Position numbers and translations under genes: made by a program. The notes below the pieces were generated by a model. It ran no database searches and was not told the DNA's origin. It saw nothing but the letters and a program-made list of their open reading frames with translations. Of a stretch of 64,000 nt of DNA, positions 3 to 64,000 are shown one piece after another. Positions within the stretch are counted from its first letter, which is position 1. Each line of letters begins with the position of its first letter. The DNA lies in assembly GCA_964429815.1 (NCBI GenBank), contig CAYSCM010000001.1, positions 437,705 to 501,704 on the forward strand, given 5' to 3'. This DNA is from an uncultured Candidatus Saccharibacteria bacterium. Its GTDB lineage: Bacteria; Patescibacteriota; Minisyncoccia; Phycocordibacterales; CAYSCM01.

Positions 3-1898
3 AAGAATGTTATGAAAGAGGTGGAACGCGCGGAAGGGAAGGTCATTCTCTTCATCGATGAGCTTCACACGATCGTCGGTGCTGGGGCCGCTGAGGGCGC
101 CATGGATGCTAGCAATATGCTCAAGCCCGCTCTTGCGCGCGGCGAGCTTCGTGTTGTCGGGGCGACGACTCTCAAGGAGTATCAAAAGCACATCGAACGC
201 GATCCGGCGCTTACGCGACGCTTCCAGCCGATCTACGTCCAAGAGCCGAGCCTCGACGATGCTATCGCCATTTTGCGGGGTCTCAAGGAGAAATACGAGC
301 TTTTCCATGGCGTGCACATCACCGATGACGCCATCGTCGCGGCGGCACAGCTCAGCTCCCGCTACATCAGCGATCGCTATCTCCCCGACAAAGCCATCGA
401 CCTCATCGACGAAGCCGCTTCCGGACTGCGCATATCGCTTGAGAACAAGCCTCCCATCCTCGAAGAAGCCCATCGGAAAATCTTGCGCCTCGAAATAGAG
501 AAGGAAGCGCTCAAAAAGGATGTCGAAGCAGGCACCAATTCCGCCAAAAATCGCGTTAAGAAAATAGACAAAGAGATCGCCGACCTCAAGGAGAAAACTT
601 CCGAGCTCTCGCTCAAGTGGAGCAACGAAAAGGCGACCCTCGGGGAAATAAAGGAGGCAAAAAAGACGCTCGAGAGTTTGCGCGTCGAAGCGGACGCTGC
701 GGAAGCGCGCGCCGACCTCGCCCGTGCGGCCGAGATCCGTTACGGCCGCATCCCGAACCTCGAAAAGGACCTCGATGCAAAAAGCAAGCGCCTCAAGAAG
801 CTCCAGAGCTCGCGTCGCATACTTAAGGAAGAAGTCACTGAGTCCGATATCGCCTCGGTCGTCGCGCGTTGGACCGGCATTCCGGTCGCCCGCATGCTCG
901 AGGAGGAGGCCGCGAAGCTCTCTCGCATGGAGGAGGAGCTCAGGAAGCGCATCATCGGCCAGGACGATGCCGTGAAGCGCGTCGCGGACGCCGTGAAGCG
1001 CTCACGTGCCGGCATCTCCGACCCCCACCGCCCCATAGGCTCTTTTCTCTTCCTTGGCCCCACCGGAGTGGGAAAGACCGAGCTCACCAAGGCGCTTGCT
1101 GAGTTTATGTTCGACGACGAGAAAGCTCTCATCCGCGTCGATATGTCGGAGTATATGGAGCGCCACGCGGTCTCTAAGATCATCGGGGCTCCTCCGGGCT
1201 ACGTCGGGCACGACGAAGGAGGCTCGCTCACGGAGATGATCCGTCACCGACCGTACTCGGTGGTCCTCTTCGATGAGATAGAGAAGGCTCACCCGGAGGT
1301 CTTCAACATCCTTCTCCAAGTGCTCGACAACGGCCGCCTCACGGACGCAAAAGGACGCGTGGTGAACTTCAAAAACACCATAATCATCCTCACGAGCAAC
1401 ATCGGTGCCGAATTCATGGACAAAGGGAGCTCTATCGGCTTTGCCGCGAAGGGGGGCGAGGTTGCCGAATACGAGCAGATAAAAGAGAAAGTGACGGGCC
1501 GCCTCAAGGATTACTTCCGTCCCGAGTTCATCAATCGCCTCGACGAGATCATCAACTTCAACATTCTTTCGCAGGAAGCTATAGCCAATATCGTAAAGCT
1601 TCAGGTCGAGGTCGTGCGCAAGCGGCTCCTCGAAAAAGAAATCGAGCTCGAGATTGCGCCGGAGGTTTATGCCTACCTCGGCAAGGAGGGCTATAACCCG
1701 CAGTATGGTGCTCGACCACTGAAGCGCTTGATCCAGAACAAAATTCTCACCCCCATTGCCTCACTTATGGTGTCCCACGGAGTCATGGAAGGAGGTCTTA
1801 TCTCGATCGGCCTCAAGGGCGAAGAGTTTACCTTCGAGGTAAAGAAAGGGAAGATCCGCTCGCACTTCTCGGCAAAGAAGCAAAAAGCCACAGCATAG
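3..1898 (+). CDS. clpB: ATP-dependent chaperone ClpB, C-terminal ~630 aa. The 5' end lies upstream of the window.
   Basis: Second AAA+ module with Walker A GPTGVGKT and sensor region, a ClpB middle coiled-coil and the C-terminal D2 small domain. The open frame continues to window position 3 with no start codon. Confidence 0.9.
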
Positions 1899-1960
1899 GT
1901 GGGGTTTGTAAAAAGAAAGCCGCCCAATGTGGGACGGCCTTTAGTCGGTCATCACGATGC

Positions 1961-2452
1961 CTAAAGTGGTACAGCTTCGTGAGCGATGTTCTCCATGAAG
2001 TTTGAATCGCGGTGGGGGAGTAGACATTGGAGTGTCGACAGATTCTGCCTCCAGTTTGGAGGAAAGCAGAATATATCGAGGACTCCACAGTAGTGAGCGC
2101 TCAGTTTGTAAATGAGGTCATCGGCCGTGGGGCCAAAGGTATCACGAAGAAGTTCTCTCCAGGCCCCGAAGTCTTCATGTTGGAAGGTGGGATCTTGGTT
2201 GTCGTCGTAGTCATCGAGATCGCTGATTTCAAACGAGGTCCATCGCGTCTCGACCCCAGCTGCTATGTGAGCAGCTTCCTGGCGTTTTGCGACAAAAAAA
2301 TGGGCAGCGATAAAATCTGGGACGGTCAGGATGATGTCAATATCGCCACCCCTTCCTTCGCGCGCGATGCTACCGAACAACTCTACCGATTGCACGTATG
2401 GACAACTGCGCAGTACCTCGGCCACCTTTTTTGCGTCCGCAAGTGTAGGCAT
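1961..2452 (-). CDS. Pol-beta-superfamily nucleotidyltransferase domain protein (163 aa)
   Basis: Contains LFGSIAREGRGGDIDIIL, the classic GS-x9-DxD nucleotidyltransferase motif. The C-terminal ~90 aa are unassigned. No HEPN partner gene is adjacent. Confidence 0.55.
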   Translation of the reverse strand: MPTLADAKKVAEVLRSCPYVQSVELFGSIAREGRGGDIDIILTVPDFIAAHFFVAKRQEAAHIAAGVETRWTSFEISDLDDYDDNQDPTFQHEDFGAWRELLRDTFGPTADDLIYKLSAHYCGVLDIFCFPPNWRQNLSTLQCLLPHRDSNFMENIAHEAVPL

Positions 2453-2569
2453 GCTAGCCTCCTTACATGTTCATTCTCTGAAAAATATTATATCAATAAA
2501 AATTTAAAATGTCAAAGCTCGCCAGCGAGGGATTTTAAAAAGACAAAAAAAATGCTAGCCTAGCTTCGC

Positions 2570-2653
2570 GCGTCGGTGGCGGAGTGGTCAATCGCACCTG
2601 ACTGTAAATCAGGCGGCTTTATGCCTACGGGGGTTCGAATCCCTCCCGGCGCA
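2570..2653 (+). tRNA. tRNA-Tyr (anticodon GTA), long variable arm, CCA not encoded
   Basis: Cloverleaf folded by hand. Acceptor GCGTCGG pairs with CCGGCGC (one G-U). Anticodon stem CCTGA/TCAGG carries loop CTGTAAA. T-loop is GGTTCGAATCC. The long extra arm is typical of Tyr. Confidence 0.8.
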
Positions 2654-2785
2654 CTACGTGACAAGTACTCTAAATAAGAGTACTGTTAAGAGCAGAGTAC
2701 CTGTAGCGCGACGCTGCAGGTGCGTTCCTAGGGCAAGCGTGATGCTTGTCTAACAATACGGCGCGATGCCGTAAGGAGTAGTACC

Positions 2786-3211
2786 ATGAGACGTTCGAAT
2801 GTTGACGCAATTTATGCGGAAAATCCCTTTCTGTCGAAAGTGATCGCGAGAGTCAAGGTTCCAGATGCGCAGGTGAAGCGCTGGAACGAAGATTTCCTCG
2901 GCAGCACACCCGACACCTACCCTGATTCAGGAACTGAAAAGATTTACCTGATCGACGGACAAGGCAACAAGATCGTACGCGTGGGAAGTCTTTCTGATCG
3001 AATCACTGGATTCTTTGGACTCCACCAGAACAGCGAAACGGTCGGACAGGCCTTAGCGCGTATCGGCGACAAAACTCGCCAGGTGCAGTACGCGGTCGGA
3101 GAGTGGAACGGGAGGGTCATTTTGTGGAAACTCCCGAACGGCTACAACAACGCAGCCGATTGGTTGAGGTCGCGGATTGCGGAAGCTCGGGCTGAGCTGA
3201 AAGCATCCTGA
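2786..3211 (+). CDS. hypothetical protein (141 aa)
   Basis: SD AAGGAG lies 7 nt upstream of the ATG. Two rho-independent terminators follow. No recognisable domain. Confidence 0.6.
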   Translation: MRRSNVDAIYAENPFLSKVIARVKVPDAQVKRWNEDFLGSTPDTYPDSGTEKIYLIDGQGNKIVRVGSLSDRITGFFGLHQNSETVGQALARIGDKTRQVQYAVGEWNGRVILWKLPNGYNNAADWLRSRIAEARAELKAS

Positions 3212-3369: not shown

Positions 3370-4662
3370 ATGAGCAAAAAGCTCGCCTTCTTTATATTTA
3401 TTGTGTCTGTCGTTGCCGTGTTGGTCGCGACAGCAGTGCAGACATCCGCGGCTCCCATCGTGCCGCAGGTATCCGCCCAGCCCGGCTCTGTTGAAGGCGG
3501 TCCGCTTCGCGCCTGCGACCTCCTCACCCTCTACAACAACATCCTCCGGTTCGGGATCTATGCTGCGACGGTTATTGCGACCCTCATGCTTACCTACGCG
3601 GGCTTCCTCTACATCACCTCCTCGGCCAAGATAGGAAACATTGAAAAGGCACACGGGATTTTTACCAATGTCATCATCGGCTTCATCATTGTCCTCGTCG
3701 CGTGGCTTATCGTCTCGACTCTTTTGCGCGTGTTTACCGCGCAATCGAACTACAATCCGTTCGCCGCGATACAGTGCAATGTTGAAACACCGACGACGAC
3801 GCGCAACGTCACCCCTGCCGGATTTGAAACACAGTCCTATTCTGACTATCCCACCGGTCTTCCCGCCGGAGAGGTTCCGGTGTGCCTCACCGCCGATAGC
3901 GACAGCAATTGCACCACCTACGCTTCCATCGGGCTGCAAGACTCGACCCTTCTTGAGTGCCAGGATCCCGGAGCAACCGGCGAGCAGTACTGTTGCTCGA
4001 TGACTAACGCCGACGGCTCATGTAAGCTAGCGGTCACGGTCGGGCCAAATGGCCAACCTTCCTACAACAACGATGTGGGTGAGAATCTCTACGTAAATCC
4101 GAATGTGGGGCTCACTGGCGTTGCCCCGACAGAAGGTATTTGCTCCCCGGATGCGCTCCAGAGCGTGTGGGGAGATAACGCCGCAACCGCTGGGTGCATA
4201 TGCGCTTCAGAAAGTGGTGGGGGGCTCTACAACGGCATTACGGGCCCGCGCACGGACGTCATGCTCATCGATCAACAGCAGCCAGATGGTTTTTATCCAG
4301 GTTTTTCGGCATGCCCATTCCAGCTCAACGTCACGAGCCTTCCGGCACAATATGGTGGATGTGGCGCGTATACCTGCAATACCAACACACAGGCGTGTAT
4401 GATAAACGGTGTATTAACGCCACCCAATCCCACGAAATGCGATACAAATGTATCAGCCTATGAGCAAACCCTTGGATACAAGGAAGGGGCTCTGAGTCGA
4501 AACGGAGGCTATTGCCATGTGATAACCAATCAACCCGCCTTTAACTCCTGCGTGCAAAACCTTCTTACACCCGGGGGATGTGCCAAGGGAGCTCAATATC
4601 TTCTTGCCAATGGCGGCTGGGCGCACTGGAGTACGAGCGCTAAAAAATGCCGAGCTATATGA
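3370..4662 (+). CDS. TrbC/VirB2-type (T4SS-pilin-like) membrane protein with a Cys-rich extracytoplasmic C-terminal domain
   Basis: A signal peptide is followed by the conserved block ACDLLTLYNNILRFGIYAATVIATLMLTYAGFLYITS...KAHGIFTNVIIGFIIVLVAWLIVSTLLRVF, i.e. two TM helices. Then comes a ~300 aa domain rich in Cys, Gly, Asn and Thr. The true start is taken at MSKKLAFF because the ORF-track start at 3337 lies inside the terminator. Confidence 0.65.
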   Translation: MSKKLAFFIFIVSVVAVLVATAVQTSAAPIVPQVSAQPGSVEGGPLRACDLLTLYNNILRFGIYAATVIATLMLTYAGFLYITSSAKIGNIEKAHGIFTNVIIGFIIVLVAWLIVSTLLRVFTAQSNYNPFAAIQCNVETPTTTRNVTPAGFETQSYSDYPTGLPAGEVPVCLTADSDSNCTTYASIGLQDSTLLECQDPGATGEQYCCSMTNADGSCKLAVTVGPNGQPSYNNDVGENLYVNPNVGLTGVAPTEGICSPDALQSVWGDNAATAGCICASESGGGLYNGITGPRTDVMLIDQQQPDGFYPGFSACPFQLNVTSLPAQYGGCGAYTCNTNTQACMINGVLTPPNPTKCDTNVSAYEQTLGYKEGALSRNGGYCHVITNQPAFNSCVQNLLTPGGCAKGAQYLLANGGWAHWSTSAKKCRAI

Positions 4663-6394: not shown

Positions 6395-6466
6395 GGGCCT
6401 ATAGTTTAATTGGTAAAACAGCGGTCTCCAAAACCGCCATTCCCCGTTCAAGTCGGGGTGGGCCCG
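6395..6466 (+). tRNA. tRNA-Trp (anticodon CCA)
   Basis: Acceptor GGGCCTA/TGGGCCC. Anticodon stem GCGGT/ACCGC with loop CTCCAAA. T-arm CCCCG-TTCAAGT-CGGGG. Confidence 0.8.
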
Positions 6467-8921: not shown

Positions 8922-9005
8922 TGCCGGGGGAGAGAATCGAACTCTCATGACCGTGAGGTCGCACGATTTTGAGTCGTGTGCGTCTACCAATTCCGCCACC
9001 CCGGC
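8922..9005 (-). tRNA. tRNA-Leu (anticodon CAA), long variable arm
   Basis: The reverse complement folds with acceptor GCCGGGG/CCCCGGC. Anticodon stem CACGA/TCGTG with loop CTCAAAA. Long extra arm. T-loop GTTCGATTC. Confidence 0.8.
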
Positions 9006-25353: not shown

Positions 25354-25424
25354 CTGGGGGACAGGGATTCGAACCCCGATTAATGGCTCCAAAGGCCACT
25401 GTCCTACCGTTAGACGATCCCCCA
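25354..25424 (-). tRNA. tRNA-Gln (anticodon TTG)
   Basis: The reverse complement is TGGGGGA-TC-GTC-TAACGGTAG-GAC-A-GTGGC-CTTTGGA-GCCAT-TAAT-CGGGG-TTCGAAT-CCCTG-TCCCCCA-G. The 7-bp acceptor pairs perfectly, and the architecture parallels E. coli tRNA-Gln. Confidence 0.75.
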
Positions 25425-34952: not shown

Positions 34953-36584
34953 ATGACGGCTCACACCCGTATCGCTATGCTGTATTTGCGCCTCATTTGG
35001 AGACAATTGAAAATAGTCGGAGCGCACCTTAAGACCATCGGCAAAATTGTCTGGTCGTTCGCTAAATCGCACAAAATCGTGAGCTCGATCGTAGCGGCCG
35101 CCTTGGCCACAGGCCTTGGTGCGGCCGCTTATTTTGGCGCCAGCAAGGCCGCGACGACGATAGCGGAGGGTCCTGCCGTCCACCTCGTGCGCGTCGGCGA
35201 CGTGTCCGCCTCAGCTCCCATTTCGCTCATCGGCATCGTGCGCGCCACGCGGGAGGCCAATGTCGCTCCGGATATTTCTGGCACGGTCTCGGCCGTGTAC
35301 CGCAACCTCGGTGACTACGTGCCCGCCGGGACCATCATCGCGGAGCTTAAAAACGACACGCAGCGCGCTGCCGTGGCGGCTGCTCGCGCGGCGCTCCAAA
35401 AAGCCCAAAGCGGCAGCGTCGTCGGCGGCATCAGCGTCGAGAACGCCCAGAATTCCTACGCCGCAGCCATCGATACCGCACGGTCAACGGTACAAAGCGC
35501 ATACTCGACCATTGATGACGCTATCGCACGAAAAGCGGATCAAACGTTTTCAAACCCCAACAGCCCGCAGCCGCATTTCAACGTCTCAAGCTCTAATTCG
35601 CAGCTCGTCGTCAATGTTCAAAATGACCGTTTGGCTATGCAGGCCATTCGGGCGCGCGAGAGCACGGTAGTGGTAGCTACACTCTCTCCAGGCGATCTCC
35701 TTGCCGAACTCTCCTTACTTGGAAGTGAAGTAAAGTCCGTTCAAAACTTCATGCAGGACCTGGTCGCCGCACTTAATGCCGCCGTTCCCACCTACGGGAT
35801 CACTGAAGCGACTATCGCAGGCTATCGTGCGGACGTATCAGCAGGGCTCGCCAGCATTAATGCGCTTGCGAGCTCACTGCCGGGAGTATCCGAGATGCTC
35901 AAAACAAAACGTGCCGCGGTCGACATCGCTCAGACGTCGCTTGCAACCGGCTCCACGGGAGAGAGCGCCGACGTTGCGGCTGCGGAGGCGAACCTCGCGC
36001 TCCAACTCGCCGGACTTGAGAAAACGCTCATCCGAGCCCCCATCTCCGGGACCGTCAATAGGCTCGATCTCGACGTCGGCTCTTTCGTCAACGCATCGGT
36101 CCCAATCGTCTACATCACGAGCGCCGGTGGTCTTGAAGTGGTCGCCTTCGTTTCGGGAAATGACATCGCTGACATCGCCGTCGGAGCCAAAGCGAAGGTA
36201 GGCGCCAGTGTTGACGGGGTAGTCGCACGCGTCGCAAGCGCCCTCGACCCTCTGACGAAAAAGGCGGAAGTGCGGGTCTTTGTACCGCCGTCCGCTCCGC
36301 TGGTCGCAGGACAGTCGGCGACCGTCTCTGTAGAGCGCTCCGCGCCAAAGGTCCCGTCGGCAAATCCGACCCTCACCGTCCCCCTCACCGCGATCAAGAT
36401 AACGCCGCAATCTCCCTTGGTGTTCACCGTGAACGACGCGCACCAGCTCGTCGGAAATCCCGTGGTTCTCGGAACCCTGCGCGGGGACAGCGTCGACATT
36501 GTAAGCGGCGTTACCGCCACCATGCAGATAGTCGAGGACGCCCGCGGGCTTAAGGAAGGACAGGCAGTTATCGTAAATCCCTAA
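34953..36584 (+). CDS. RND efflux periplasmic adaptor (membrane fusion protein, HlyD family)
   Basis: TM anchor, long coiled-coil (AARAALQKAQ...), and lipoyl and beta-barrel segments. Immediately upstream of the RND permease. Confidence 0.75.
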   Translation: MTAHTRIAMLYLRLIWRQLKIVGAHLKTIGKIVWSFAKSHKIVSSIVAAALATGLGAAAYFGASKAATTIAEGPAVHLVRVGDVSASAPISLIGIVRATREANVAPDISGTVSAVYRNLGDYVPAGTIIAELKNDTQRAAVAAARAALQKAQSGSVVGGISVENAQNSYAAAIDTARSTVQSAYSTIDDAIARKADQTFSNPNSPQPHFNVSSSNSQLVVNVQNDRLAMQAIRARESTVVVATLSPGDLLAELSLLGSEVKSVQNFMQDLVAALNAAVPTYGITEATIAGYRADVSAGLASINALASSLPGVSEMLKTKRAAVDIAQTSLATGSTGESADVAAAEANLALQLAGLEKTLIRAPISGTVNRLDLDVGSFVNASVPIVYITSAGGLEVVAFVSGNDIADIAVGAKAKVGASVDGVVARVASALDPLTKKAEVRVFVPPSAPLVAGQSATVSVERSAPKVPSANPTLTVPLTAIKITPQSPLVFTVNDAHQLVGNPVVLGTLRGDSVDIVSGVTATMQIVEDARGLKEGQAVIVNP

Positions 36585-36590
36585 ACCGCC

Positions 36591-39500
36591 ATGTCCGGCC
36601 TCTGGAACTTTTTTATTGAACGACGGCAGTTCACGATACTCGTCATGATAGCGCTCACCGCGGCAGGCCTTGTCGCGGTCATCGCCATACCCAAGGAAAA
36701 CGCACCCGAGGTTAAGGTGCCGGTCGCGGTCATCGCGACGACGCTCCGAGGCGCTTCTGCCGCGGACGTTACCAAGCTCGTCACCAAAGAGATCGAGAAG
36801 GAGGTTGGGACGGTCGAAAATCTTCACAAGCTCACCTCCTCTTCGCGGGAGGGAGTGTCGGTCGTGACCGCGGAATTCGAAGCCTCCGCCAACCTTGACA
36901 AATCTATCCAGAACATCAAAGACGCGGTCGACCGCGCCAAGCCGAACCTGCCGCGCGACGCCGACGAGCCCGTCATAACCCGTGTTTCTTTCAGTGATCA
37001 GCCCATTCTCATCATTTCGATCTCGGGCGGGCTTCCGCCGACGGAGTTTGCCTCGCTTGCGAAGGACGTGAAAGACCAACTCGAGCTCGTTGCCGGCGTT
37101 TCCTCTGTTGACGTGGCCGGGACACGCGAGCGCGAAGCGGACGTCGTCGTGCGCCGCGAGGCGCTCGACGCCTACGGACTTACGCTCTCCGATGTCGTCG
37201 GTGCGATCGGCGCCGCGAACGCCTCGCTCCCCATCGGCACCATTACCGTCGACAAGGTCGAGTACGCCATCGCCTTTCACGGCGATCTCAATGACCCTGA
37301 AGACCTCCTCGGGGTGACCGTGGGACAGGTTGGCGGGCGGCCCGTGTATCTGCGCGACATCGCGGACATCGTTAACGGCATCGAAAGGGCGAAGACCATC
37401 TCTCGCGCGTCGGTGCACGGGTCGCCCGCCGAGCCTGCCGTGACGCTTTCCGTCCATAAGCGCGCCGGTGCAAACATTTTCCTCACCGGAAGCGCCGTCA
37501 AGAAGAAACTTTCCGAACTCAGCGCAACGACCCTCTCGGGCCTTACGACCTCGATATCGATAGACCTCGGAGCGGAAGTCTCCAAGAGCCTCGGCGAGCT
37601 CACTCGGGTCGGCGTCGAAACGGTCATTCTCGTTATTTTGTGCCTCCTTCTCACGATAGGCTGGCGGGAATCGATCGTCGCCGGACTCTCTATCCCGCTC
37701 TCCTTTGTCATCGCATTCTCCGGACTTTATCTTTCCGGCAACACCATCAATTTCGTTTCGCTCTTCTCGCTCATTCTCGCGATAGGAATCCTCGTCGACT
37801 CCGGCATCGTCGTCACGGAAGCCATCCACACGCGCCTCAAGCGTTTCGGAGAGCCGATCTTTGCCGCAAAGGAAGCGATACGCGAGTATGCCTGGCCGCT
37901 CACCGCGGGGACCCTTACGACGGTCGCGGTGTTTGCGCCTCTCTTTTTCATCTCCGGCATAACGGGGCAGTTCATCGCCTCCATCCCATTCACGGTAATT
38001 TTCGTCCTTATCGCGTCCATTTTCGTCGCGCTTGGCCTCGTGCCGCTTATTGCGATCATGTTCACGAAGACGGAGCTCAACGGCCTCGAGCGGCTTCAGG
38101 AGGAGTGGAACCTCAAGCTCCAGAGGCGCTACCGGGCGTGGCTGCTTCGCATACTCGGCGACGGAGCGTTCCAGCGGAAGTTTTTGCGCGGCATGACCGC
38201 GGGTTTCATCATCGCCCTCATCCTGCCCATGACGGGGCTCGTCAAGGTCATCTTCTTTCCCCAAAGCGATTCCGAGTATGCGTACCTTGAAATAGAGACC
38301 AAGCAAGGGACGCCGCTTGCGCAAACCGATCTCGCCGCGCGTGGGGTCGAGGAGCTTCTCTATGGAGACCCGCGCATCGCCTCCTTCGTAACGACGATCG
38401 GCGCCACCTCGCCGCTCTCCCAAAGCCCGACTTCGGGCACTAAGTACGCCAACATCACGATTCGCCTCGTGCCCGAAAAAAATCGCGCGCAAAGCTCAAC
38501 GAAGATCGTGAACGAGCTGCGCAACAAGGTCGCAGTCTTCCACGATTTCACCGTGCGCGCGCTTGAGCCGCAGGGCGGCCCGCCGACCGGCGCGCCGGTT
38601 GTTATCACCTTCTCGGGGGAGAATCTCGATGATTTGGAGAAGGCGGCCGACCTCGGAGAGCGAACCCTCAAGGAAATCCCAGGGGCGATCGAGGTGACGA
38701 CCTCGACGAAAGATAATGGGACGCAGTTTGGGCTCACTATAGACCGAGGAAAAGCGGCGGAAGTAGGGTTGACCCCTGTCCAAGTCGCCTCCGCGCTTCG
38801 CACGGCGGTCTCCGGCACTATCGCGACTACCATCAAGAGCGATGCGCGGGACATCGACGTGCTCGTCCTTTCCAATCTCAACCCGAACTGGCGCGATCCG
38901 ACGGATACGACCGAGGCGACGATAGATTCCGTCATGAACCTTTCGATAAAGACACCGCGGGGGAGCGTGTTGCTCGGCTCCATTCTCGCCTCCGGCATCG
39001 AGCGCAACAGCGCCATCATTAAACGCGAAGACCAAAAGAACATCGCGACGGTTTCCTCGTACTTGTTGCCGGGGAAGACGGCAGGAGAGGTTTCGTCCGC
39101 CTTTTCCACGGCGATAAAAAAGGTCGATTTTCCGAAGGGAGTGGCTATGAAGATAGGAGGCGAAACAGCAAATGTCGACCAATCGTTCCAGGAAATGTTC
39201 TATGCCCTCATCGGCGGCATGGTTCTCATGCTCGCCATACTTGTTCTTGCATTCAACTCTTTCCGCTACTCCTTCTACCTCCTGATGCTCGTGCCGCTTG
39301 CGCTCATCGGCGTTTTTGCCGGGCTTGCGATAACGCGCCAGCCGCTCTCGTTCCCTTCGCTTCTCGGCGTCATCGCGCTCGCTGGCGTCATCATCAACCA
39401 TGCCATCATCCTTGTTGATTCAATGATCGTGCGCATGAAAAACCCGGAGGGCAGAGGGCTCCCCGAGGTCGTCGCGGACGCCGCCGTTTCGCGCTTCCGG

Positions 39501-39716
39501 CCAATAATCCTCACCACGCTTACGACCGTCATCGGCATGGTGCCGCTCGCGGGCGCGTCAGCGCTGTGGGGCCCGCTCGCGTTTGCCATTATGTTCGGCC
39601 TCGCCTTCGCGATGGTGCTCACGCTTGTATTGACACCCATCCTTATTTTCCGACATCCCGGTAAAGAGTTTTGGAAGGAGCCTCAATCTGCAGCGCACGG
39701 TAGTGCAAACGCTTAA
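36591..39716 (+). CDS. RND efflux transporter permease (AcrB/HAE family)
   Basis: 1041 aa with 12 TM helices and two large periplasmic loops. N-terminal FFIERRQFTILVMIALTAAG. Overall AcrB architecture. Confidence 0.85.
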   Translation: MSGLWNFFIERRQFTILVMIALTAAGLVAVIAIPKENAPEVKVPVAVIATTLRGASAADVTKLVTKEIEKEVGTVENLHKLTSSSREGVSVVTAEFEASANLDKSIQNIKDAVDRAKPNLPRDADEPVITRVSFSDQPILIISISGGLPPTEFASLAKDVKDQLELVAGVSSVDVAGTREREADVVVRREALDAYGLTLSDVVGAIGAANASLPIGTITVDKVEYAIAFHGDLNDPEDLLGVTVGQVGGRPVYLRDIADIVNGIERAKTISRASVHGSPAEPAVTLSVHKRAGANIFLTGSAVKKKLSELSATTLSGLTTSISIDLGAEVSKSLGELTRVGVETVILVILCLLLTIGWRESIVAGLSIPLSFVIAFSGLYLSGNTINFVSLFSLILAIGILVDSGIVVTEAIHTRLKRFGEPIFAAKEAIREYAWPLTAGTLTTVAVFAPLFFISGITGQFIASIPFTVIFVLIASIFVALGLVPLIAIMFTKTELNGLERLQEEWNLKLQRRYRAWLLRILGDGAFQRKFLRGMTAGFIIALILPMTGLVKVIFFPQSDSEYAYLEIETKQGTPLAQTDLAARGVEELLYGDPRIASFVTTIGATSPLSQSPTSGTKYANITIRLVPEKNRAQSSTKIVNELRNKVAVFHDFTVRALEPQGGPPTGAPVVITFSGENLDDLEKAADLGERTLKEIPGAIEVTTSTKDNGTQFGLTIDRGKAAEVGLTPVQVASALRTAVSGTIATTIKSDARDIDVLVLSNLNPNWRDPTDTTEATIDSVMNLSIKTPRGSVLLGSILASGIERNSAIIKREDQKNIATVSSYLLPGKTAGEVSSAFSTAIKKVDFPKGVAMKIGGETANVDQSFQEMFYALIGGMVLMLAILVLAFNSFRYSFYLLMLVPLALIGVFAGLAITRQPLSFPSLLGVIALAGVIINHAIILVDSMIVRMKNPEGRGLPEVVADAAVSRFRPIILTTLTTVIGMVPLAGASALWGPLAFAIMFGLAFAMVLTLVLTPILIFRHPGKEFWKEPQSAAHGSANA

Positions 39717-39860
39717 TGCGCGTGGCGTTCGATCATCACCGGGAGGGAAACCTGGGTCGCTTCTGCTCATTTCCACGACCAGCCCCTTGCCGCATAGGTA
39801 CGTCGTACTCAGTAGTTGACCCGGTATCCTCCTTGGAGCAGGGAAGGTGGCGAGAGGTCT

Positions 39861-39889
39861 ATTGACCGTCGTGAATAAATATGCTTTAA
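39861..39889 (+). promoter_or_regulatory. sigma70-like promoter of paralog cassette copy 1
   Basis: TTGACC - 17 nt - TTTAAT. The spacer core ATAAATATG is shared with copy 2. Confidence 0.4.
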
Positions 39890-39923
39890 TTTCCCTCAGT
39901 TCTTTGGCATTCAAGAGTACCGT

Positions 39924-39970
39924 GAGATGAGCTTTTTGTGGCTGAAAAGTCGGCCCCAAAAAGCTCGTCT
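39924..39970 (+). promoter_or_regulatory. conserved 5'-leader hairpin, copy 1
   Basis: gagatgagcttttt / aaaaagctcgtctc form a 14-bp stem with one G-U pair. The loop is gtggctgaaaagtcggcccc. An AAGGAGG SD follows. Confidence 0.5.
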
Positions 39971-40029
39971 CATCAGAGACAGTCGCCAGTCCGAGCGCCA
40001 CGGGCATCACACCACTAAGGAGGTATGCG

Positions 40030-40797
40030 ATGGAAACCATCGTGAGCCGCACCTTGTCGGTACACAAGGAACACGAAGTCCTTCTGAAGCTCGAAGCGGC
40101 GGGGTTCAGCGACGATCTCGCACAGAAGGTCATCGAATCGAGGGACAACGACCTCGCCAAAAAGGTCGTGCGCCTCATTCGGAGCGGCGGCCTCGAGCCG
40201 TCGACCTCACAGCAGAAGGCCCGCGAGATCATGGGCACGAACATGTTCGGCATCGAGGACGCGATCAAGCATTTCGACGTCAACCCGTCGAAGACCCAGC
40301 TTGCCGCACTCTGCGAAATCCCGTTCAGTGAGGAAGTGCTCGTGGCCTCTAAGGACACGCACGTTCTTGTGGCGCTGTTTCCACTTTCAATCCTCGACGT
40401 TCGAGGCGAGGCCGACTGTAGGCTCTTCTACTTCCACGAAGGCACCTGGTACAACAAGAAGCAGGCGTTCGCGAAAGACAGGGGCGAGATCGGCTGGCAG
40501 CTCGTTCGCAAGACCCCGGTTGACAACTCGACGAGCAAGTCTTGGGGCGAGCAGCAGAAACTGCTCGGTAAGGACGAGGAGACGCCGAAGGCGCAGGTAA
40601 TTGTCTATACGATCATTGCCCACTTTCTCTCAACCGGCGAGCGATTGTTCGAAAGCATCTACGTCAGATGTTCCGATCTCGGCTCGGACGGCTTCCGCAT
40701 CAACGTCGGCCGTTTTAACGTCATAGGTCTCCACATCAACCACTACTGGGACGACCGCCGCCACGACAACCTCGGCTTATCCTCTGCCCGGAAGTAA
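40030..40797 (+). CDS. hypothetical protein, paralog 1 (255 aa)
   Basis: C-terminal ~150 aa are about 60% identical to paralog 2 (GW.L.RK.PV..STSK.W.EQ...RLFE.IYVRCSDL...YWDD.RHD.LGLSSARK). The N-terminus is unrelated. Confidence 0.7.
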   Translation: METIVSRTLSVHKEHEVLLKLEAAGFSDDLAQKVIESRDNDLAKKVVRLIRSGGLEPSTSQQKAREIMGTNMFGIEDAIKHFDVNPSKTQLAALCEIPFSEEVLVASKDTHVLVALFPLSILDVRGEADCRLFYFHEGTWYNKKQAFAKDRGEIGWQLVRKTPVDNSTSKSWGEQQKLLGKDEETPKAQVIVYTIIAHFLSTGERLFESIYVRCSDLGSDGFRINVGRFNVIGLHINHYWDDRRHDNLGLSSARK

Positions 40798-40833
40798 CCT
40801 TGAATCTTGGGGCCTCGGTCTCTTGTTCCCTTG

Positions 40834-40873
40834 AGCCCCTGCGAATTTTTTTTGCGGGGGCTCTTTGTTTTTG
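40834..40873 (+). terminator. rho-independent terminator of paralog 1
   Basis: gagcccctgcg-aattttttt-tgcgggggctc followed by tttgttttt. Confidence 0.6.
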
Positions 40874-40882
40874 GCACTGAGA

Positions 40883-40911
40883 TTGACTAGAGTCTATAAA
40901 TATGATAAAGT
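40883..40911 (+). promoter_or_regulatory. sigma70-like promoter of paralog cassette copy 2
   Basis: TTGACT - 17 nt - TAAAGT, with the same ATAAATATG spacer core as copy 1. Confidence 0.35.
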
Positions 40912-40953
40912 GCGTCCGGCGTTCTTTTCCATTTACTACAAAGGTTACTTATG

Positions 40954-41000
40954 AGGCGAGCTTCCTGCGGCTGAAAAGTCGGCCCCAAAAAGCTCGTCTC
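40954..41000 (+). promoter_or_regulatory. conserved 5'-leader hairpin, copy 2
   Basis: gaggcgagctt / aagctcgtctc with a G-U pair at a different stem position from copy 1. The loop ggctgaaaagtcggcccc is identical. Confidence 0.5.
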
Positions 41001-41048
41001 AATCAAGAGGTAGCCGCTCGCCCAAGCGTAGGGCACAGGAGAACGACG

Positions 41049-41834
41049 ATGACGACCGCCAGGTCTATCACGTCCGAACAGCGTACCCAGTACAATCGCT
41101 TCGTGCAGGATGGAGGCCGCAAGGCTCTTCGCCAAGCCGGTCTCGACAGGGAGGGTCTGCAACGGCTCTTCAAACGCGGCGGCGAATTCCAAGCCCATAT
41201 CTTGGAAGGCGTCAAGCGTTTTTCGGCGAAGCAGCCGGACTACACGCTGGCGCAATCCATCCTCGGCGTCGATTTCATCACGCCGGAGGAGCTCATGAAA
41301 GTGTCGGCGGTAATTTACGAGGACAAGCACCTCGCTTCGCTCCACGACACTGTCCCGCCGGAAGACGTTCTGCGTTGGTGCAAAGACCATAATTACGTCG
41401 TGGTCGCGGCCCCACCCTATCCGATAAACTTGCTCAACATCCGCATGCTCGACAGCAGCCTCTTCTATTCCAAAACGGGCGGCTGGTATTCCGAGCAGAA
41501 GTTCGCGAGCGAGAACAAGACCAACACGGGCTGGCTCATGATCCGCAAGGATCCTGTGCCGAAATCGACCAGCAAGAACTGGGACGAGCAGAACCAGCTC
41601 GTCTTCGGCGTCGAGCACGTTCCGAATTCGGCCGAGGTGAGTTGGCTTGTCACGACCTATTTCAAGGTTCGCGGCGTCCGGCTCTTCGAGAACATCTACG
41701 TCAGATGTTCCGATCTCGACTCGGGCGGCAACCGCGTCTACGTCGGCTACTTCGACTCGGAGGGTCTCCGCGTCAGCTTCTACTGGGACGACTTCCGCCA
41801 CGACCTCCTCGGGTTGTCCTCCGCCCGGAAGTAA
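41049..41834 (+). CDS. hypothetical protein, paralog 2 (261 aa)
   Basis: Start placed after the SD-like caggag, by analogy with copy 1. The ORF-track start at 40902 reads through the leader. Confidence 0.65.
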   Translation: MTTARSITSEQRTQYNRFVQDGGRKALRQAGLDREGLQRLFKRGGEFQAHILEGVKRFSAKQPDYTLAQSILGVDFITPEELMKVSAVIYEDKHLASLHDTVPPEDVLRWCKDHNYVVVAAPPYPINLLNIRMLDSSLFYSKTGGWYSEQKFASENKTNTGWLMIRKDPVPKSTSKNWDEQNQLVFGVEHVPNSAEVSWLVTTYFKVRGVRLFENIYVRCSDLDSGGNRVYVGYFDSEGLRVSFYWDDFRHDLLGLSSARK

Positions 41835-41863
41835 CCTTGAATCTTGAGGCCTCGGCCTCTTGT

Positions 41864-41900
41864 TCCCTTGAGCCCCCGCGAAATTTTTCGCGGGGGCTCT
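41864..41900 (+). terminator. rho-independent terminator of paralog 2
   Basis: gagcccccgcg-aaattttt-cgcgggggctc followed by tttgttttt. Confidence 0.6.
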
Positions 41901-41940
41901 TTGTTTTTAGAGTGAAAAATTTGTTCTTAAGGAATGGTCA

Positions 41941-41969
41941 TTGACGCAATAGAAGCTATGTGTCATAAT
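41941..41969 (+). promoter_or_regulatory. near-consensus sigma70 promoter driving a leaderless small gene
   Basis: TTGACG - 17 nt - CATAAT. The ATG lies 7 nt downstream of the -10 element. Confidence 0.5.
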
Positions 41970-41975
41970 TGAGGC

Positions 41976-42152
41976 ATGACAGGCAAGCGAGCCCATAACC
42001 CGACCCGAGGCCCCATCAAGACTTTTATGGAGAATGGCCACTGGAGCGTTAAGCGCCACAAGACGGTCATTTTGGTGTGCCGCTCATGCGGCGGGAAATA
42101 TGTAAAGACGCGTGATCGGCAGACCATGTGTTTGCGCTGTCTCCTCGCCTAA
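41976..42152 (+). CDS. small zinc-ribbon protein (58 aa)
   Basis: MTGKRAHNPTRGPIKTFMENGHWSVKRHKTVILVCRSCGGKYVKTRDRQTMCLRCLLA, with a CxxC-x14-CxxC arrangement. Absent from the ORF track because it is under 60 aa. Confidence 0.5.
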   Translation: MTGKRAHNPTRGPIKTFMENGHWSVKRHKTVILVCRSCGGKYVKTRDRQTMCLRCLLA

Positions 42153-63934: not shown

Positions 63935-64000
63935 GGGCCCGTAGCTTAGTTGGTAGAGCGCCTCATTTGCAATGAGGAGGTCAGGAGTTCGAATCTCCTC
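63935..64000 (+). tRNA. tRNA-Ala (anticodon TGC), 3' end truncated by the window edge
   Basis: GGGCCCG-TA-GCTTAGTTGGTAGAGC...stem CCTCA / loop TTTGCAA / TGAGG...GGTCAGGAGTTCGAATCTCCTC. The acceptor 3' strand lies beyond position 64000. Confidence 0.65.

Follow-up and report, generated by a model that had tools for sequence, protein, structure and literature searches.

Probable DGR target genes in tandem in a Patescibacteria genome, with a conserved, structured mRNA leader

The two cassettes and their proteins

The window analysed here, a 64-kb stretch (64,000 nt) of a contig from an uncultured Candidatus Saccharibacteria bacterium, contains two adjacent genes, A and B, each with its own upstream and downstream elements (Table 1). 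The paralogy of the two genes, proposed in a first-pass annotation that was made from the sequence, is borne out by BLASTP (41% identity over 195 aa, E 1e-46). The distribution of the similarity is less simple than described there: identity of about 60% applies to the last ~60 residues and not to the whole C-terminal half, and the stretch that cannot be aligned is confined to the first ~65 residues, the rest of the N-terminal halves being alignable. Similarly, the claim that the non-coding parts are more conserved than the coding sequence holds for the leader hairpin (90% identity between the copies) and for the region from the stop codon to the terminator (91-93%), compared to 78% in the last 150 nt of the coding sequence and 53-61% in its remainder, but not for the other leader and promoter sequences (50-68%). 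The TTGAC-N17 promoter assigned to each copy passes a consensus scan in gene B; that of gene A fails the -10 rule of the scan, and orthologous loci carry TTGACA-N17-TATAAT at the same relative place.

Table 1. Positions of the features of the two cassettes within the window.
Feature	Position	Strand	Description
Putative promoter of gene A	39862-39890	+	TTGACC-N17-TTTAAT, read from sequence
Conserved 5'-end motif	39898-39907	+	AGTTCTTTGG; family consensus AGTTCTTTGAA; 5-10 nt past the -10 box in most loci of both target families
Long-range helix, 5' strand, gene A	39909-39915	+	ATTCAAG, 7 nt, complementary to 40799-40805 (3' strand)
Leader hairpin, copy A	39923-39972	+	23 bp, one internal mismatch, AAAG loop; MFE -33.7 kcal/mol, z -9.7
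Start-codon hairpin, gene A	40022-40048	+	GGU.UGCGAUGG-AAA-CCAUCGUG.GCC; covers the SD 3' end and AUG; MFE -13.4 kcal/mol, z -3.8
Gene A	40030-40797	+	255 aa; DGR variable (target) protein, N-terminal helical domain and C-type lectin fold
Variable-repeat-like region, gene A (VR_A)	40676-40794	+	ends GCCCGGAAGT, IMH-like; aligns to template repeats of L048 and L052
3' element A	40795-40873	+	stop codon, YTTGA repeats, small hairpin (~40809-40822), terminator 40833-40863, T tract
Promoter of gene B	40883-40911	+	TTGACT-N17-TAAAGT, TG-extended
Long-range helix, 5' strand, gene B	40941-40950	+	AAGGTTACTT, perfect complement of AAGTAACCTT at 41829-41838
Leader hairpin, copy B	40952-41001	+	two C.A mismatches; MFE -30.1 kcal/mol, z -6.1
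Gene B	41049-41834	+	261 aa; DGR variable protein paralogous to gene A, with a different N-terminus
Variable-repeat-like region, gene B (VR_B)	41713-41831	+	nearer than VR_A to the template repeats of relatives
3' element B	41832-41909	+	stop codon, YTTGA repeats, small hairpin, terminator 41870-41899, T tract

Neither protein has a significant match in Pfam. The family had been called uncharacterised; we find instead that genes A and B encode variable proteins of a Patescibacteria clade of diversity-generating retroelements (DGRs), bacterial systems in which error-prone reverse transcription rewrites a gene's end. Their variable repeat (VR) lies on a C-type lectin fold, in line with the C-type lectin or Ig fold that carries it in DGR targets. 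In 20 orthologous loci of relatives, a ~120-nt copy of the gene 3' end, the template repeat (TR), lies ~350-480 nt downstream, and 318 of the 362 mismatches between VR and template repeat in these loci fall on template adenines. Adjoining the template repeat are genes for bAvd (PF22296, 7e-15) and a reverse transcriptase (RVT_1, 1.7e-22) in whose sequence the IGNLTSQ motif can be read; both RT and Avd lie within 4 kb of the target in 44 of 79 related loci. A second DGR target family, F2, was recognized by its adenine-specific template repeats (five loci) and adjoining RT and Avd; tblastn does not align it with the A/B family, yet the two share an RT/Avd clade. Two 'hypothetical proteins' of a Patescibacteria genome thus become DGR variable proteins, and an assignment becomes available for a family that counts over 1,100 database proteins and has no Pfam domain listed. 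In the model that we propose, the two cassettes would be separately transcribed DGR target genes of this clade, each encoding a C-type lectin fold joined to an N-terminal module that varies between proteins; the last ~40 codons would constitute the VR.

The cassettes lie next to each other, are laid out alike and share a 33-nt identical tract and ~70-nt 3' tracts, all of which could be taken to indicate a recent tandem duplication followed by fast protein divergence, with the conserved non-coding blocks as slowly changing remnants devoid of function. Orthologs of gene A (60-73% identity) and of gene B (45-68%) each occur in many genomes, those of gene B adjoining TR, Avd and RT in L048, L052, L017, L022 and L032, which implies that the paralogy is old. 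Moreover, more than 100 genomes and metagenome contigs have kept both the leader hairpin and the 3' element, with covariation, whereas the remaining non-coding sequence of the two copies is just 50-68% identical. A recent duplication is already contradicted by the orthology pattern, and we give it almost no credence.

Variable repeats, 3' elements and the orphan state of the pair

The VRs of the window can be aligned with the template repeats found in relatives, and the codons at which they vary correspond to AAC in the template. They end in GCCCGGAAGT, compared to GCCCGGCAGT in the template repeats, and have GGAAGT in place of GGCAGT. Beyond the stop codon, a small GC-rich hairpin starts after ~12 nt and a 13-bp GC-rich stem-loop after ~35 nt. 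Phage BPP-1 depends on an IMH together with a GC-rich inverted repeat located 4-34 bp past the VR (PMC3240598); both parts are recognizable at the VR ends in the window, and, by analogy, the VR end here may be functionally equivalent to the BPP-1 IMH. The 13-bp stems, each followed by TTTGTTTTT, also have the form of intrinsic terminators.

The terminators and 3' flanks are indeed nearly identical between the copies, as first noted. When the 3' elements of related loci were gathered by tblastn-anchored extraction, the element proved to be kept in nearly all of them, and YTTGA repeats follow the stop codon in the F2 family as well. The 'conserved 3' element' of the first-pass annotation is therefore conserved family-wide; as a free-standing RNA element, however, it fits less well than as a set of DGR parts. 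Because the gene 3' end is copied as the template repeat in relatives, the conserved 3' block corresponds to the VR scaffold, the IMH-like end, the YTTGA repeats and the GC-rich hairpin/terminator, and the near-identity of the 3' ends of genes A and B follows from their status as DGR targets. Under the proposed model, all targets of one DGR would be rewritten from a single template repeat and would need common cis elements just 3' of the VR, here the IMH-like end, four YTTGA repeats, the small hairpin and the GC-rich stem-loop doubling as terminator. DGR biology thus best explains the conserved 3' coding end and its flank. Conservation of the YTTGA repeats and of the terminator base could nevertheless reflect an RNA function rather than recognition of the DGR target.

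The window itself yielded no match to the RT and Avd of L034 used as tblastn queries, and it holds no template repeat or third VR copy. VR_A and VR_B differ at 17 template-A and 14 non-A positions, compared to totals of 134 template-A and 28 non-A differences between pairs of targets in eight genomes with an adjacent DGR; in addition, VR_A shows G>A and C>T changes relative to the L048 and L052 template repeats. Given the 14 non-adenine differences and the lack of RT, Avd and template repeat in the window, the VRs look orphaned or partly decayed, 'orphan' referring here to the 64 kb examined. The RT and template repeat may sit elsewhere on the 501,704-bp contig. A search of related genomes for the window's neighbours, which might have revealed a clean deletion of RT, Avd and TR, found no neighbours in common. 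Gene A, at least, has probably not been rewritten recently from the template of gene B. Our model accordingly allows for a pair that is either orphaned or supplied from a distance, in which VR_A would have gathered ordinary substitutions; retention of the cis elements beside a VR that accumulates such substitutions is the look of orphan targets.

The leader hairpin and the closing helix

The two leader hairpins are 50 nt long each, and their near-identical loop and 3' arm, as previously described, prove to be a fully identical 33-nt tract that is absent elsewhere in the window. What had been taken for the loop, GGCUGAAAAGUCGGCCCC, is in fact an apical stem of 6 bp capped by an AAAG tetraloop. 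The stems had also been thought to compensate for each other's changes; they do not: the 5' arm contains all five differences, two of which leave copy B with C.A mismatches. Compensatory changes are present across genomes: in an alignment of 53 sequences, 93% of the cells are paired, double changes occur in 18 of the 23 pairs, and 191 cells are compensatory. The covariation score of 0.50 compares with 0.20 for shuffled alignments (0/500 reach the observed values) and with at most 0.13 for slid partners. Since the hairpin is conserved with abundant covariation far beyond the duplication in the window, the proposal of selection on the leader is supported, and the finding that would have spoken against it, a hairpin confined to this duplication or one without covariation, was not obtained. 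Judged by the alignment, compensatory change maintains the 5' hairpin, which is a real structure of the sense strand.

The 5' arm of copy B resembles that of relatives such as L052 and its 3' arm is that of copy A, a combination that accounts for the C.A mismatches. Together with the exact identity of the 33-nt tract, this mosaic makes gene conversion between the hairpin copies plausible, as had been suggested; in our model, concerted evolution of this tract and of the 3' flank would be superimposed on constraint.

All strong hairpin matches with an identifiable neighbour lie upstream of a gene of the A/B or F2 family or of a similar C-terminal-variant gene; at L090, L103 and L173, strong matches have ambiguous neighbouring ORFs. 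Roughly 35-40% of orthologs have short leaders without the hairpin, among them some with complete DGRs (L026, L002, L010), which indicates that the hairpin is dispensable.

A gathering-threshold Rfam scan of the whole window reported only tRNAs, so that no Rfam family covers the leaders at or above its threshold, and a permissive scan of 39700-42000 gave chance hits, of which the highest-scoring on the hairpin, to mir-208, is spurious (26 bits, threshold 56). A 5' UTR of this length, structured and conserved ahead of a single gene family, is what a ligand-sensing riboswitch or a transcription attenuator would look like, and both had been suggested. The structure is at odds with either: the helix is near-perfect, with no conserved internal loop, junction or unpaired core, no U tract follows it, and in place of an alternative terminator/antiterminator pairing there is a single competing pairing of 5 bp (GUCUC/GAGAC). 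Considering also that many orthologs dispense with the element and that Rfam offers no match, a regulatory leader of this type is extremely improbable.

The hairpin is strand-specific. Covariance model R1 scores 65.2 bits on the plus strand and 41.9 bits on the minus strand for copy A, and 54.7 and 42.9 bits, respectively, for copy B. Across the window and 79 loci from GTDB genomes, the sense strand scores higher than the antisense strand, usually by ~10-30 bits, at all sites but one, the exception being L015 1065-1123, where the minus strand prevails. This asymmetry and the long-range covariation described below argue for RNA, although a sense-strand single-stranded DNA structure is also compatible with them.

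The hairpin could conceivably act as DNA, whether as a palindrome to which a dimeric regulator binds, as a cruciform or as a hairpin in single-stranded DNA that an HUH/integrase-type enzyme recognises, with the flanking complementarity representing the terminal inverted repeats (TIRs) of a mobile cassette. The stem base is a perfect inverted repeat conserved in sequence, with two outward-facing CGTCTC sites, and the cassettes occur in differing genomic contexts, often in tandem. Like integron attC sites and REP/RAYT or IS200/IS605 hairpins, the element is an imperfect palindrome with a conserved stem base and a variable, covarying interior that folds strand-specifically and occurs in cassette-like tandem arrays. 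Against a function at the DNA level, compensatory changes extend along the whole 23-bp stem, which contains many G.U pairs (columns 20/50 are predominantly G.U), antisense scores fall well below sense scores at almost all sites, and the spacing of the half-sites ranges from 25 to 45 nt. Conserved sequence outside both 'repeats', namely 5' AGTTCTTTGAA and the 3' YTTGA array, further indicates that the repeats are not termini. No transposase or integrase was found beside the cassettes: among the neighbouring ORFs of the window that were scanned against Pfam, five match HlyD, AcrB, NUDIX, VKOR and MsrA and four have no significant match, and no recombinase occurs in the ORF list of L034, the sole related locus with ORFs listed. 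Unlike the attC, REP and IS200/IS605 elements, the hairpin lies upstream of one functional gene class and within the transcription unit, lacks an R'/R'' core consensus, has no integrase or HUH transposase seen nearby and pairs with a site 900 nt away. The cassettes thus do not have the makings of a mobile element or integron cassette, and a DNA-level role appears very unlikely.

Directly 5' of the hairpin, and within 20 nt of it, lies the signal for a second, long-range helix whose partner is the stop-codon region ~900 nt away. Family-wide, matched leader and 3' segments pair at -11.2 kcal/mol compared to -9.0 for mismatched ones (0/5000 permutations), and 66 independent metagenome units give -10.8 versus -7.7 kcal/mol (0/5000), with many compensatory variants. 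The 3' strand of this closing helix comprises the stop codon and the first YTTGA repeat, exactly where TR-VR homology ends. Within the window, the duplex of gene B reaches -13.0 kcal/mol (rank 1 of 50), and the pairing of gene A is weak (-9.4 kcal/mol, rank 40 of 50). The AAGTAACCTT sequence is also present at 40792-40801. An extension to a three-way junction, between UUCCGAG after the hairpin and CUCGGAA in the last codons (p 0.006), is tentative. Another long-range pairing, of leader GAGACAAG with CUUGUCUC of the 3' small hairpin, was discarded, since L001-type loci do not support it and the same bases are accounted for locally by the small hairpin.

The start-codon hairpin of gene A occurs in 43 loci with five covarying variants; the corresponding hairpin in the start region of gene B is not significant. 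Leader hairpin, closing helix and start-codon hairpin all have the properties of conserved structured RNA. The position of the 5'-end motif relative to the promoter suggests that it is probably at or near the transcription start.

A candidate mRNA architecture and its relation to known systems

Taken together, these results translate into a model in which the hairpin belongs to a conserved mRNA architecture found in DGR target genes from two or more protein families. Under this model, the conserved 5' end AGUUCUUUGAA would be followed by a short leader segment that pairs with the region of the stop codon and first YUUGA repeat ~900 nt off, looping the mRNA, and by the 23-bp hairpin directly beside this closing helix; in A-type genes, a second hairpin would sequester the SD and AUG. 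The elements would govern the translation and/or stability of the variable-protein mRNA, which we consider their most likely role. For example, an untranslated, closed mRNA would expose the long hairpin, as double-stranded RNA, to RNase III or some binding protein, and ribosomes arriving at the stop codon would unfold the closing helix. With its 23 bp, the hairpin has the length of an RNase III substrate (about two helical turns of dsRNA). We assign a probability of roughly 0.7 to the explanation as a whole, that is, DGR target genes, a structured mRNA with a role in expression and an orphan state at this locus.

The same RNA parts might serve not gene expression but DGR retrohoming in cis: the folded target transcript, or sense-strand single-stranded DNA, would set the VR 3' boundary beside the conserved hairpin and thereby recruit RT-Avd and the cDNA or mark the recipient gene. 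How the cDNA of a DGR finds and enters its target is still unsettled (PMC12875486). The hairpin accompanies targets from two or more families that tblastn cannot align but that share an RT/Avd clade, the 3' strand of the closing helix falls precisely at the end of TR-VR homology, and the hairpin base, UGAGACGAGC/GCUCGUCUCA, is conserved in sequence, suggestive of a specific binding partner. Yet complete DGR loci exist without the hairpin, the hairpins of the window are intact although RT and TR are absent from the 64 kb, and the leader shows no complementarity to TR-flanking RNA, nor do the TR flanks to the 3' element. RNA-guided target recognition was examined in both forms and rejected, with no recurrent complementarity between leader and TR-flanking RNA and a best p of 0.078, not significant, for TR flanks and 3' element. 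We consider the purely retrohoming role unlikely; participation of the architecture (hairpin, helix to the VR 3' boundary and YUUGA repeats) in retrohoming, by co-transcriptionally marking or presenting the recipient site to RT, Avd and cDNA, is no less doubtful.

With control of expression as the preferred reading, the leader hairpin, the 5'-3' closing helix and the start-codon hairpin constitute a candidate RNA motif specific to DGR target genes. The leader architecture is not described in Rfam or in the DGR literature that we searched. Two questions of DGR biology, how the recipient gene is recognised and how expression of freshly randomised proteins is controlled, are those on which the element bears: being conserved and reaching exactly to the VR boundary, it offers defined sites for mutation.

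Base pairing between the 5' and 3' UTRs is known in other bacterial mRNAs, such as icaR of Staphylococcus aureus and hbs of Bacillus subtilis. Complementary segments at both mRNA ends and the proposed control of translation and/or RNase-dependent stability are common to these mRNAs and the one considered here. Unlike in icaR and hbs, the 3' partner is the stop codon with the first nucleotides of the 3' UTR rather than an anti-SD sequence, the pairing is backed by covariation over ~100 loci and abuts a 23-bp hairpin, and the SD/AUG region is masked by a separate local hairpin. Leader hairpins processed by RNase III occur in rnc, pnp and phage T7 R1.1, and the 5' and 3' flanks of rRNA form processing stems. 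The leader hairpin resembles the former in its dsRNA helix of ~22 bp within the 5' leader, and the closing helix resembles the latter in joining the flanks of a long RNA. RNase III is not known to need a helix base conserved in sequence. Here, by contrast, the base is so conserved, and the closing helix is just 7-15 bp long.

Genes A and B and their relatives share with the DGR targets of Bordetella phage BPP-1 (mtd), of the Legionella and Treponema DGRs and of the Patescibacteria 'DGR clade 2' a C-terminal C-type lectin fold with the VR (PMC3240598, PMC5758913, PMC8144416). The A-to-N differences of relatives from the template repeat, the bAvd and DGR-type RT, the IMH-like VR end one base off the template end, the GC-rich inverted repeat soon after the stop codon and the multiple targets per element with modular N-termini are likewise familiar from known DGRs. 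Distinctive of this clade are a template repeat downstream of the target, an avd divergent from RT and the YTTGA repeat array after the VR. A further departure is the conserved, structured 5' leader of the target genes; in BPP-1, upstream sequences are dispensable.

Paralogous cassettes and their neighbourhood

Genes A and B are indeed paralogs, their products being 41% identical across 195 aligned residues (BLASTP, E 1e-46). Their leader hairpins are 90% identical, the apical stem-loop and the entire 3' arm forming an identical tract of exactly 33 nt with no further occurrence within the 64-kb window, and the ~70 nt after each stop codon, up to and including the 13-bp terminators in which they end, are 91-93% identical; the near-identity of both elements noted in the first-pass annotation is thus borne out. 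Its broader statement, that the non-coding parts of the cassettes are more conserved than the coding sequence, applies to these two blocks and not to the promoters and remaining leader, because segment-wise identity falls to 78% in the last 150 nt of the coding sequence, 53-61% in its remainder, and 50-68% in the promoters and remaining leader.

The compensatory changes previously proposed for the two hairpins do not exist: all five differences lie in the 5' arm, and two of these yield C.A mismatches in copy B (predicted folding, -30.1 kcal/mol for copy B and -33.7 kcal/mol for copy A). The 5' arm of copy B is like that of relatives, such as locus L052, and its 3' arm is that of copy A, a combination that would account for the two mismatches. 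Judging from the sequences, gene conversion is the most likely source of the near-identity between the copies of this genome; near-identical 3' flanks are also found between paralogous targets of other genomes. Orthology contradicts the view that the cassettes arose by duplication only recently: relatives split into A-type proteins, with 60-73% identity to gene A, and B-type proteins, which implies that the paralogy is old.

The neighbours are ordinary chromosomal genes encoding HlyD, AcrB, NUDIX, VKOR and MsrA proteins, and we found none common to the window and the other loci. The antisense ORFs over both genes lie in GC-rich sequence and are most likely non-genic.

Features of the window and their coordinates
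Feature	Position	Strand	Remarks
Gene A	40030-40797	+	255 aa
Gene B	41049-41834	+	261 aa
Leader hairpin, copy A	39923-39972	+	50 nt, 5' of gene A
Leader hairpin, copy B	40952-41001	+	50 nt, 5' of gene B
Hairpin base, copy A	39923-39932 / 39963-39972		outward-facing inverted CGTCTC/GAGACG hexamers, present also in copy B
HlyD efflux gene	34953-36584		just upstream of cassettes
AcrB efflux gene	36591-39716		just upstream of cassettes
NUDIX, VKOR, MsrA genes			downstream of cassettes
Small ORF	41976-42152		58 aa, CxxC...CxxC; zinc-ribbon Pfam hints sub-threshold only
Small-ORF promoter	41941-41969		good; TTGACG-17-CATAAT
Antisense ORF over gene A	39558-40358	-	266 aa
Antisense ORF over gene B	40887-41801	-	304 aa
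Five dispersed tRNA genes	2570-2653, 6395-6466, 8922-9005, 25354-25424, 63935-64000

Targets of diversity-generating retroelements

A profile search returned more than 1,100 relatives; among the best 120 of these, none has a Pfam domain on record, and those with a named source come from Patescibacteria or Paceibacteria. We compared 79 related loci, one genome per GTDB species, many of which contain a ~40-codon match to the target C-terminus 350-480 nt downstream of the gene. At the nucleotide level, 318 of the 362 mismatches between the gene 3' end and this downstream copy (20 loci) occur where the copy has adenine, which is the signature of the template repeat (TR; for example GACAACCTSGGNYTNTCNTCYGCCCGGCAGT) of a diversity-generating retroelement (DGR). 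Just beyond the TR lie a gene for a bAvd-like accessory protein (PF22296, 7e-15) and a reverse transcriptase (RT) gene (RVT_1, 1.7e-22) with the IGNLTSQ motif, and RT/Avd are found at most 4 kb away in 44 of the 79 loci. At the sequence level, the identification of the A/B family as DGR targets is solid. L012 carries two target-gene copies (570-1328 and 2262-3020) with equal tblastn identity (66.0%) and score, identical 3' flanks of ~110 nt, an RT-like fragment in between and full RT/Avd beyond, and looks like a recent duplication within a DGR cassette; L008 has, besides the canonical downstream DGR, a second, divergent Avd/RT pair upstream of the target (1791-3204), whose RT and Avd share 36% and 28% identity, respectively, with those of locus L034.

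The last ~120 coding nucleotides of the window genes, their variable repeats (VRs), align with the TRs of L048 and L052, the closest DGR-bearing relatives. The codons at which the two genes diverge coincide with template AAC codons, and the VR ends in GCCCGGAAGT as opposed to GCCCGGCAGT in the TR, a distinction like that between IMH and IMH*. Nowhere in the 64-kb window did we find an RT, Avd or third VR-like copy; the place of the TR-Avd-RT module of relatives such as L048 is occupied by the small ORF. Between the two VRs, 17 differences fall on template-adenine positions and 14 on others, compared with totals of 134 and 28, respectively, in eight two-target genomes with an adjacent DGR, and the VR of gene A in particular shows additional G>A and C>T changes. 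The non-adenine differences together with these changes suggest that at least one copy has not been recently rewritten from a shared template.

Downstream of the VR, nearly all loci are built alike, the stop codon being followed by AACCTTGAA, N3, CTTGAG-(small covarying hairpin)-CTCTTGA, N3, CTTGAGCC-(GC stem-loop)-GGCTCTTT. Targets of a second family (F2), which give no tblastn alignment with A or B, have four to six YTTGA repeats directly after the stop codon and then a different terminator. Retrohoming in phage BPP-1, whose DGR has been reconstituted in E. coli (PMC12875486), depends on the IMH together with a GC-rich inverted repeat lying 4-34 bp past the VR, upstream sequence being dispensable (PMC3240598; PMC12875486). 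By analogy, the conserved 3' block can be read as VR scaffold, target-site elements and terminator; the YTTGA array may be a recognition element. In six loci (L006, L015, L036, L047, L048 and L052), the terminator base GAGCCNCCGCG...GGCTC is kept, and the loop contains an insertion of 20-40 nt that would seem capable of folding into a nested hairpin. Some 40 nt past the target terminator, before the TR, lies a conserved motif, either ..ATGTCTGCTAATG.. or ..TCTTGCTAATGC.. (L034:4860-5300 and equivalents in L019, L020, L021, L026, L038, L042, L064 and L072); the TR of these loci has a GC-rich hairpin of its own behind it, and avd is divergent from the RT gene. The TR RNA of the clade may accordingly be transcribed separately, as a small RNA with a structure of its own.

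Leader hairpin and closing helix

The hairpin is conserved outside the duplication: most orthologs are preceded by the same base (UGAGACGAGC...GCUCGUCUCA) with a variable, compensating interior. In a 53-sequence alignment, 93% of cells are paired and 18 of the 23 pairs show changes on both sides (191 compensatory cells), a level approached by none of 500 shuffles and no slid register. The proposed covariation is therefore real among relatives. The stem contains many G.U pairs, one pair being mainly G.U, and conservation is higher in the 3' than in the 5' arm. At nearly all sites a covariance model gives the sense strand the higher score, its usual margin over the antisense strand being ~10-30 bits; this asymmetry points to a single-stranded structure of the sense strand, for which RNA is the simplest candidate. 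Neither a DNA-level palindrome nor mobile-element repeats agree well with the strand asymmetry or with the continuation of conserved sequence past the repeats. An Rfam scan of the hairpin yielded no matching family. The base hexamers, in which the sequence of the element is most constrained, match the site recognised by Esp3I/BsmBI-type IIS enzymes, probably a coincidence. Among variant leaders, L033 keeps the 3' arm alone, paired with a downstream GAGAC (3880-3960), and L009 has a hairpin expanded to ~110 nt by a long insertion (3835-3944).

An exact-pattern scan of metagenome contigs recovered at least 120 further hairpin loci. Among the matches listed, ~60% precede A/B-family genes and many others precede different proteins, including F2, for which A-specific TRs and adjoining RT/Avd were confirmed at five loci; the hairpin is thus tied to DGR target genes of the clade rather than to one protein family. 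It is also non-obligatory, ~35-40% of orthologs, some with complete DGRs, having short leaders without it. At L090, L103 and L173, hairpins scoring 57-65 bits precede called ORFs unlike DGR targets, which may reflect wrong ORF calls or orientation, or other hairpin contexts.

Leaders of the family begin with a conserved AGTTCTTTGAA shortly past a canonical promoter, and the ~10 nt adjoining the hairpin on its 5' side show complementarity to the gene's own stop codon and first YTTGA repeat. Compensatory variants of this closing helix (5' segment with stop region) occur, among other loci, in L001 (AAGGTTCAG with CTGAACCTT), window gene B (AAGGTTACTT with AAGTAACCTT), L047 (AAGCATCACT with AGTGATGCTT), L107 (CGAGGTTC with GAACCTCG) and L179 (ACAAGAATCACT with AGTGATTCTTGA); in window gene A the pairing extends over only 7 nt. 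Predicted binding is -11.2 kcal/mol for matched and -9.0 kcal/mol for mismatched segments (0 of 5000 permutations), the signal being confined to the 20-nt stretch adjoining the hairpin. This result was reproduced in 66 independent metagenome units (-10.8 versus -7.7 kcal/mol; 0 of 5000 permutations), 25 of which rank their own stop region within the top 10%. A three-way-junction extension, in which the post-hairpin segment pairs with the last codons (p 0.006), is possible. A-type genes have a further hairpin, which takes in the AUG and the end of the Shine-Dalgarno sequence and occurs in five covarying variants among 43 loci (gene A, -13.4 kcal/mol, z -3.8); predicted folding of the gene B start region is not significant.

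Proposed function and relation to known systems

These comparisons demonstrate the DGR-target identity of the family, its cis layout and the conserved structures, and the RNA architecture is statistically well supported. Its elements would most likely govern how the variable-protein mRNA is translated, how stable it is, or both. In a closed, untranslated mRNA, the AUG would be masked and the 23-bp helix would suit RNase III or a specific binding protein; ribosomes terminating at the stop codon would need to unwind the closing helix. A role of the hairpin and closing helix in retrohoming itself is less likely, though it would be the most interesting outcome; it is weakened by the existence of complete DGRs without the hairpin, and neither the leader nor the 3' element proved complementary to TR-flanking RNA. 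As for an attenuator or riboswitch, the leader lacks every defining feature.

For the conserved mRNA structure of the cassettes, we found no description in Rfam or in those DGR papers that were searched. The cassettes themselves are of a known kind, namely DGR variable-protein genes, here without a retroelement in the 64 kb examined. The A/B family agrees with published descriptions of Patescibacteria DGRs, which are cell-encoded, belong to 'clade 2' and have targets with modular N-termini and without recognisable domains (PMC8144416), their variable repeats being mostly unclassified (PMC5758913).
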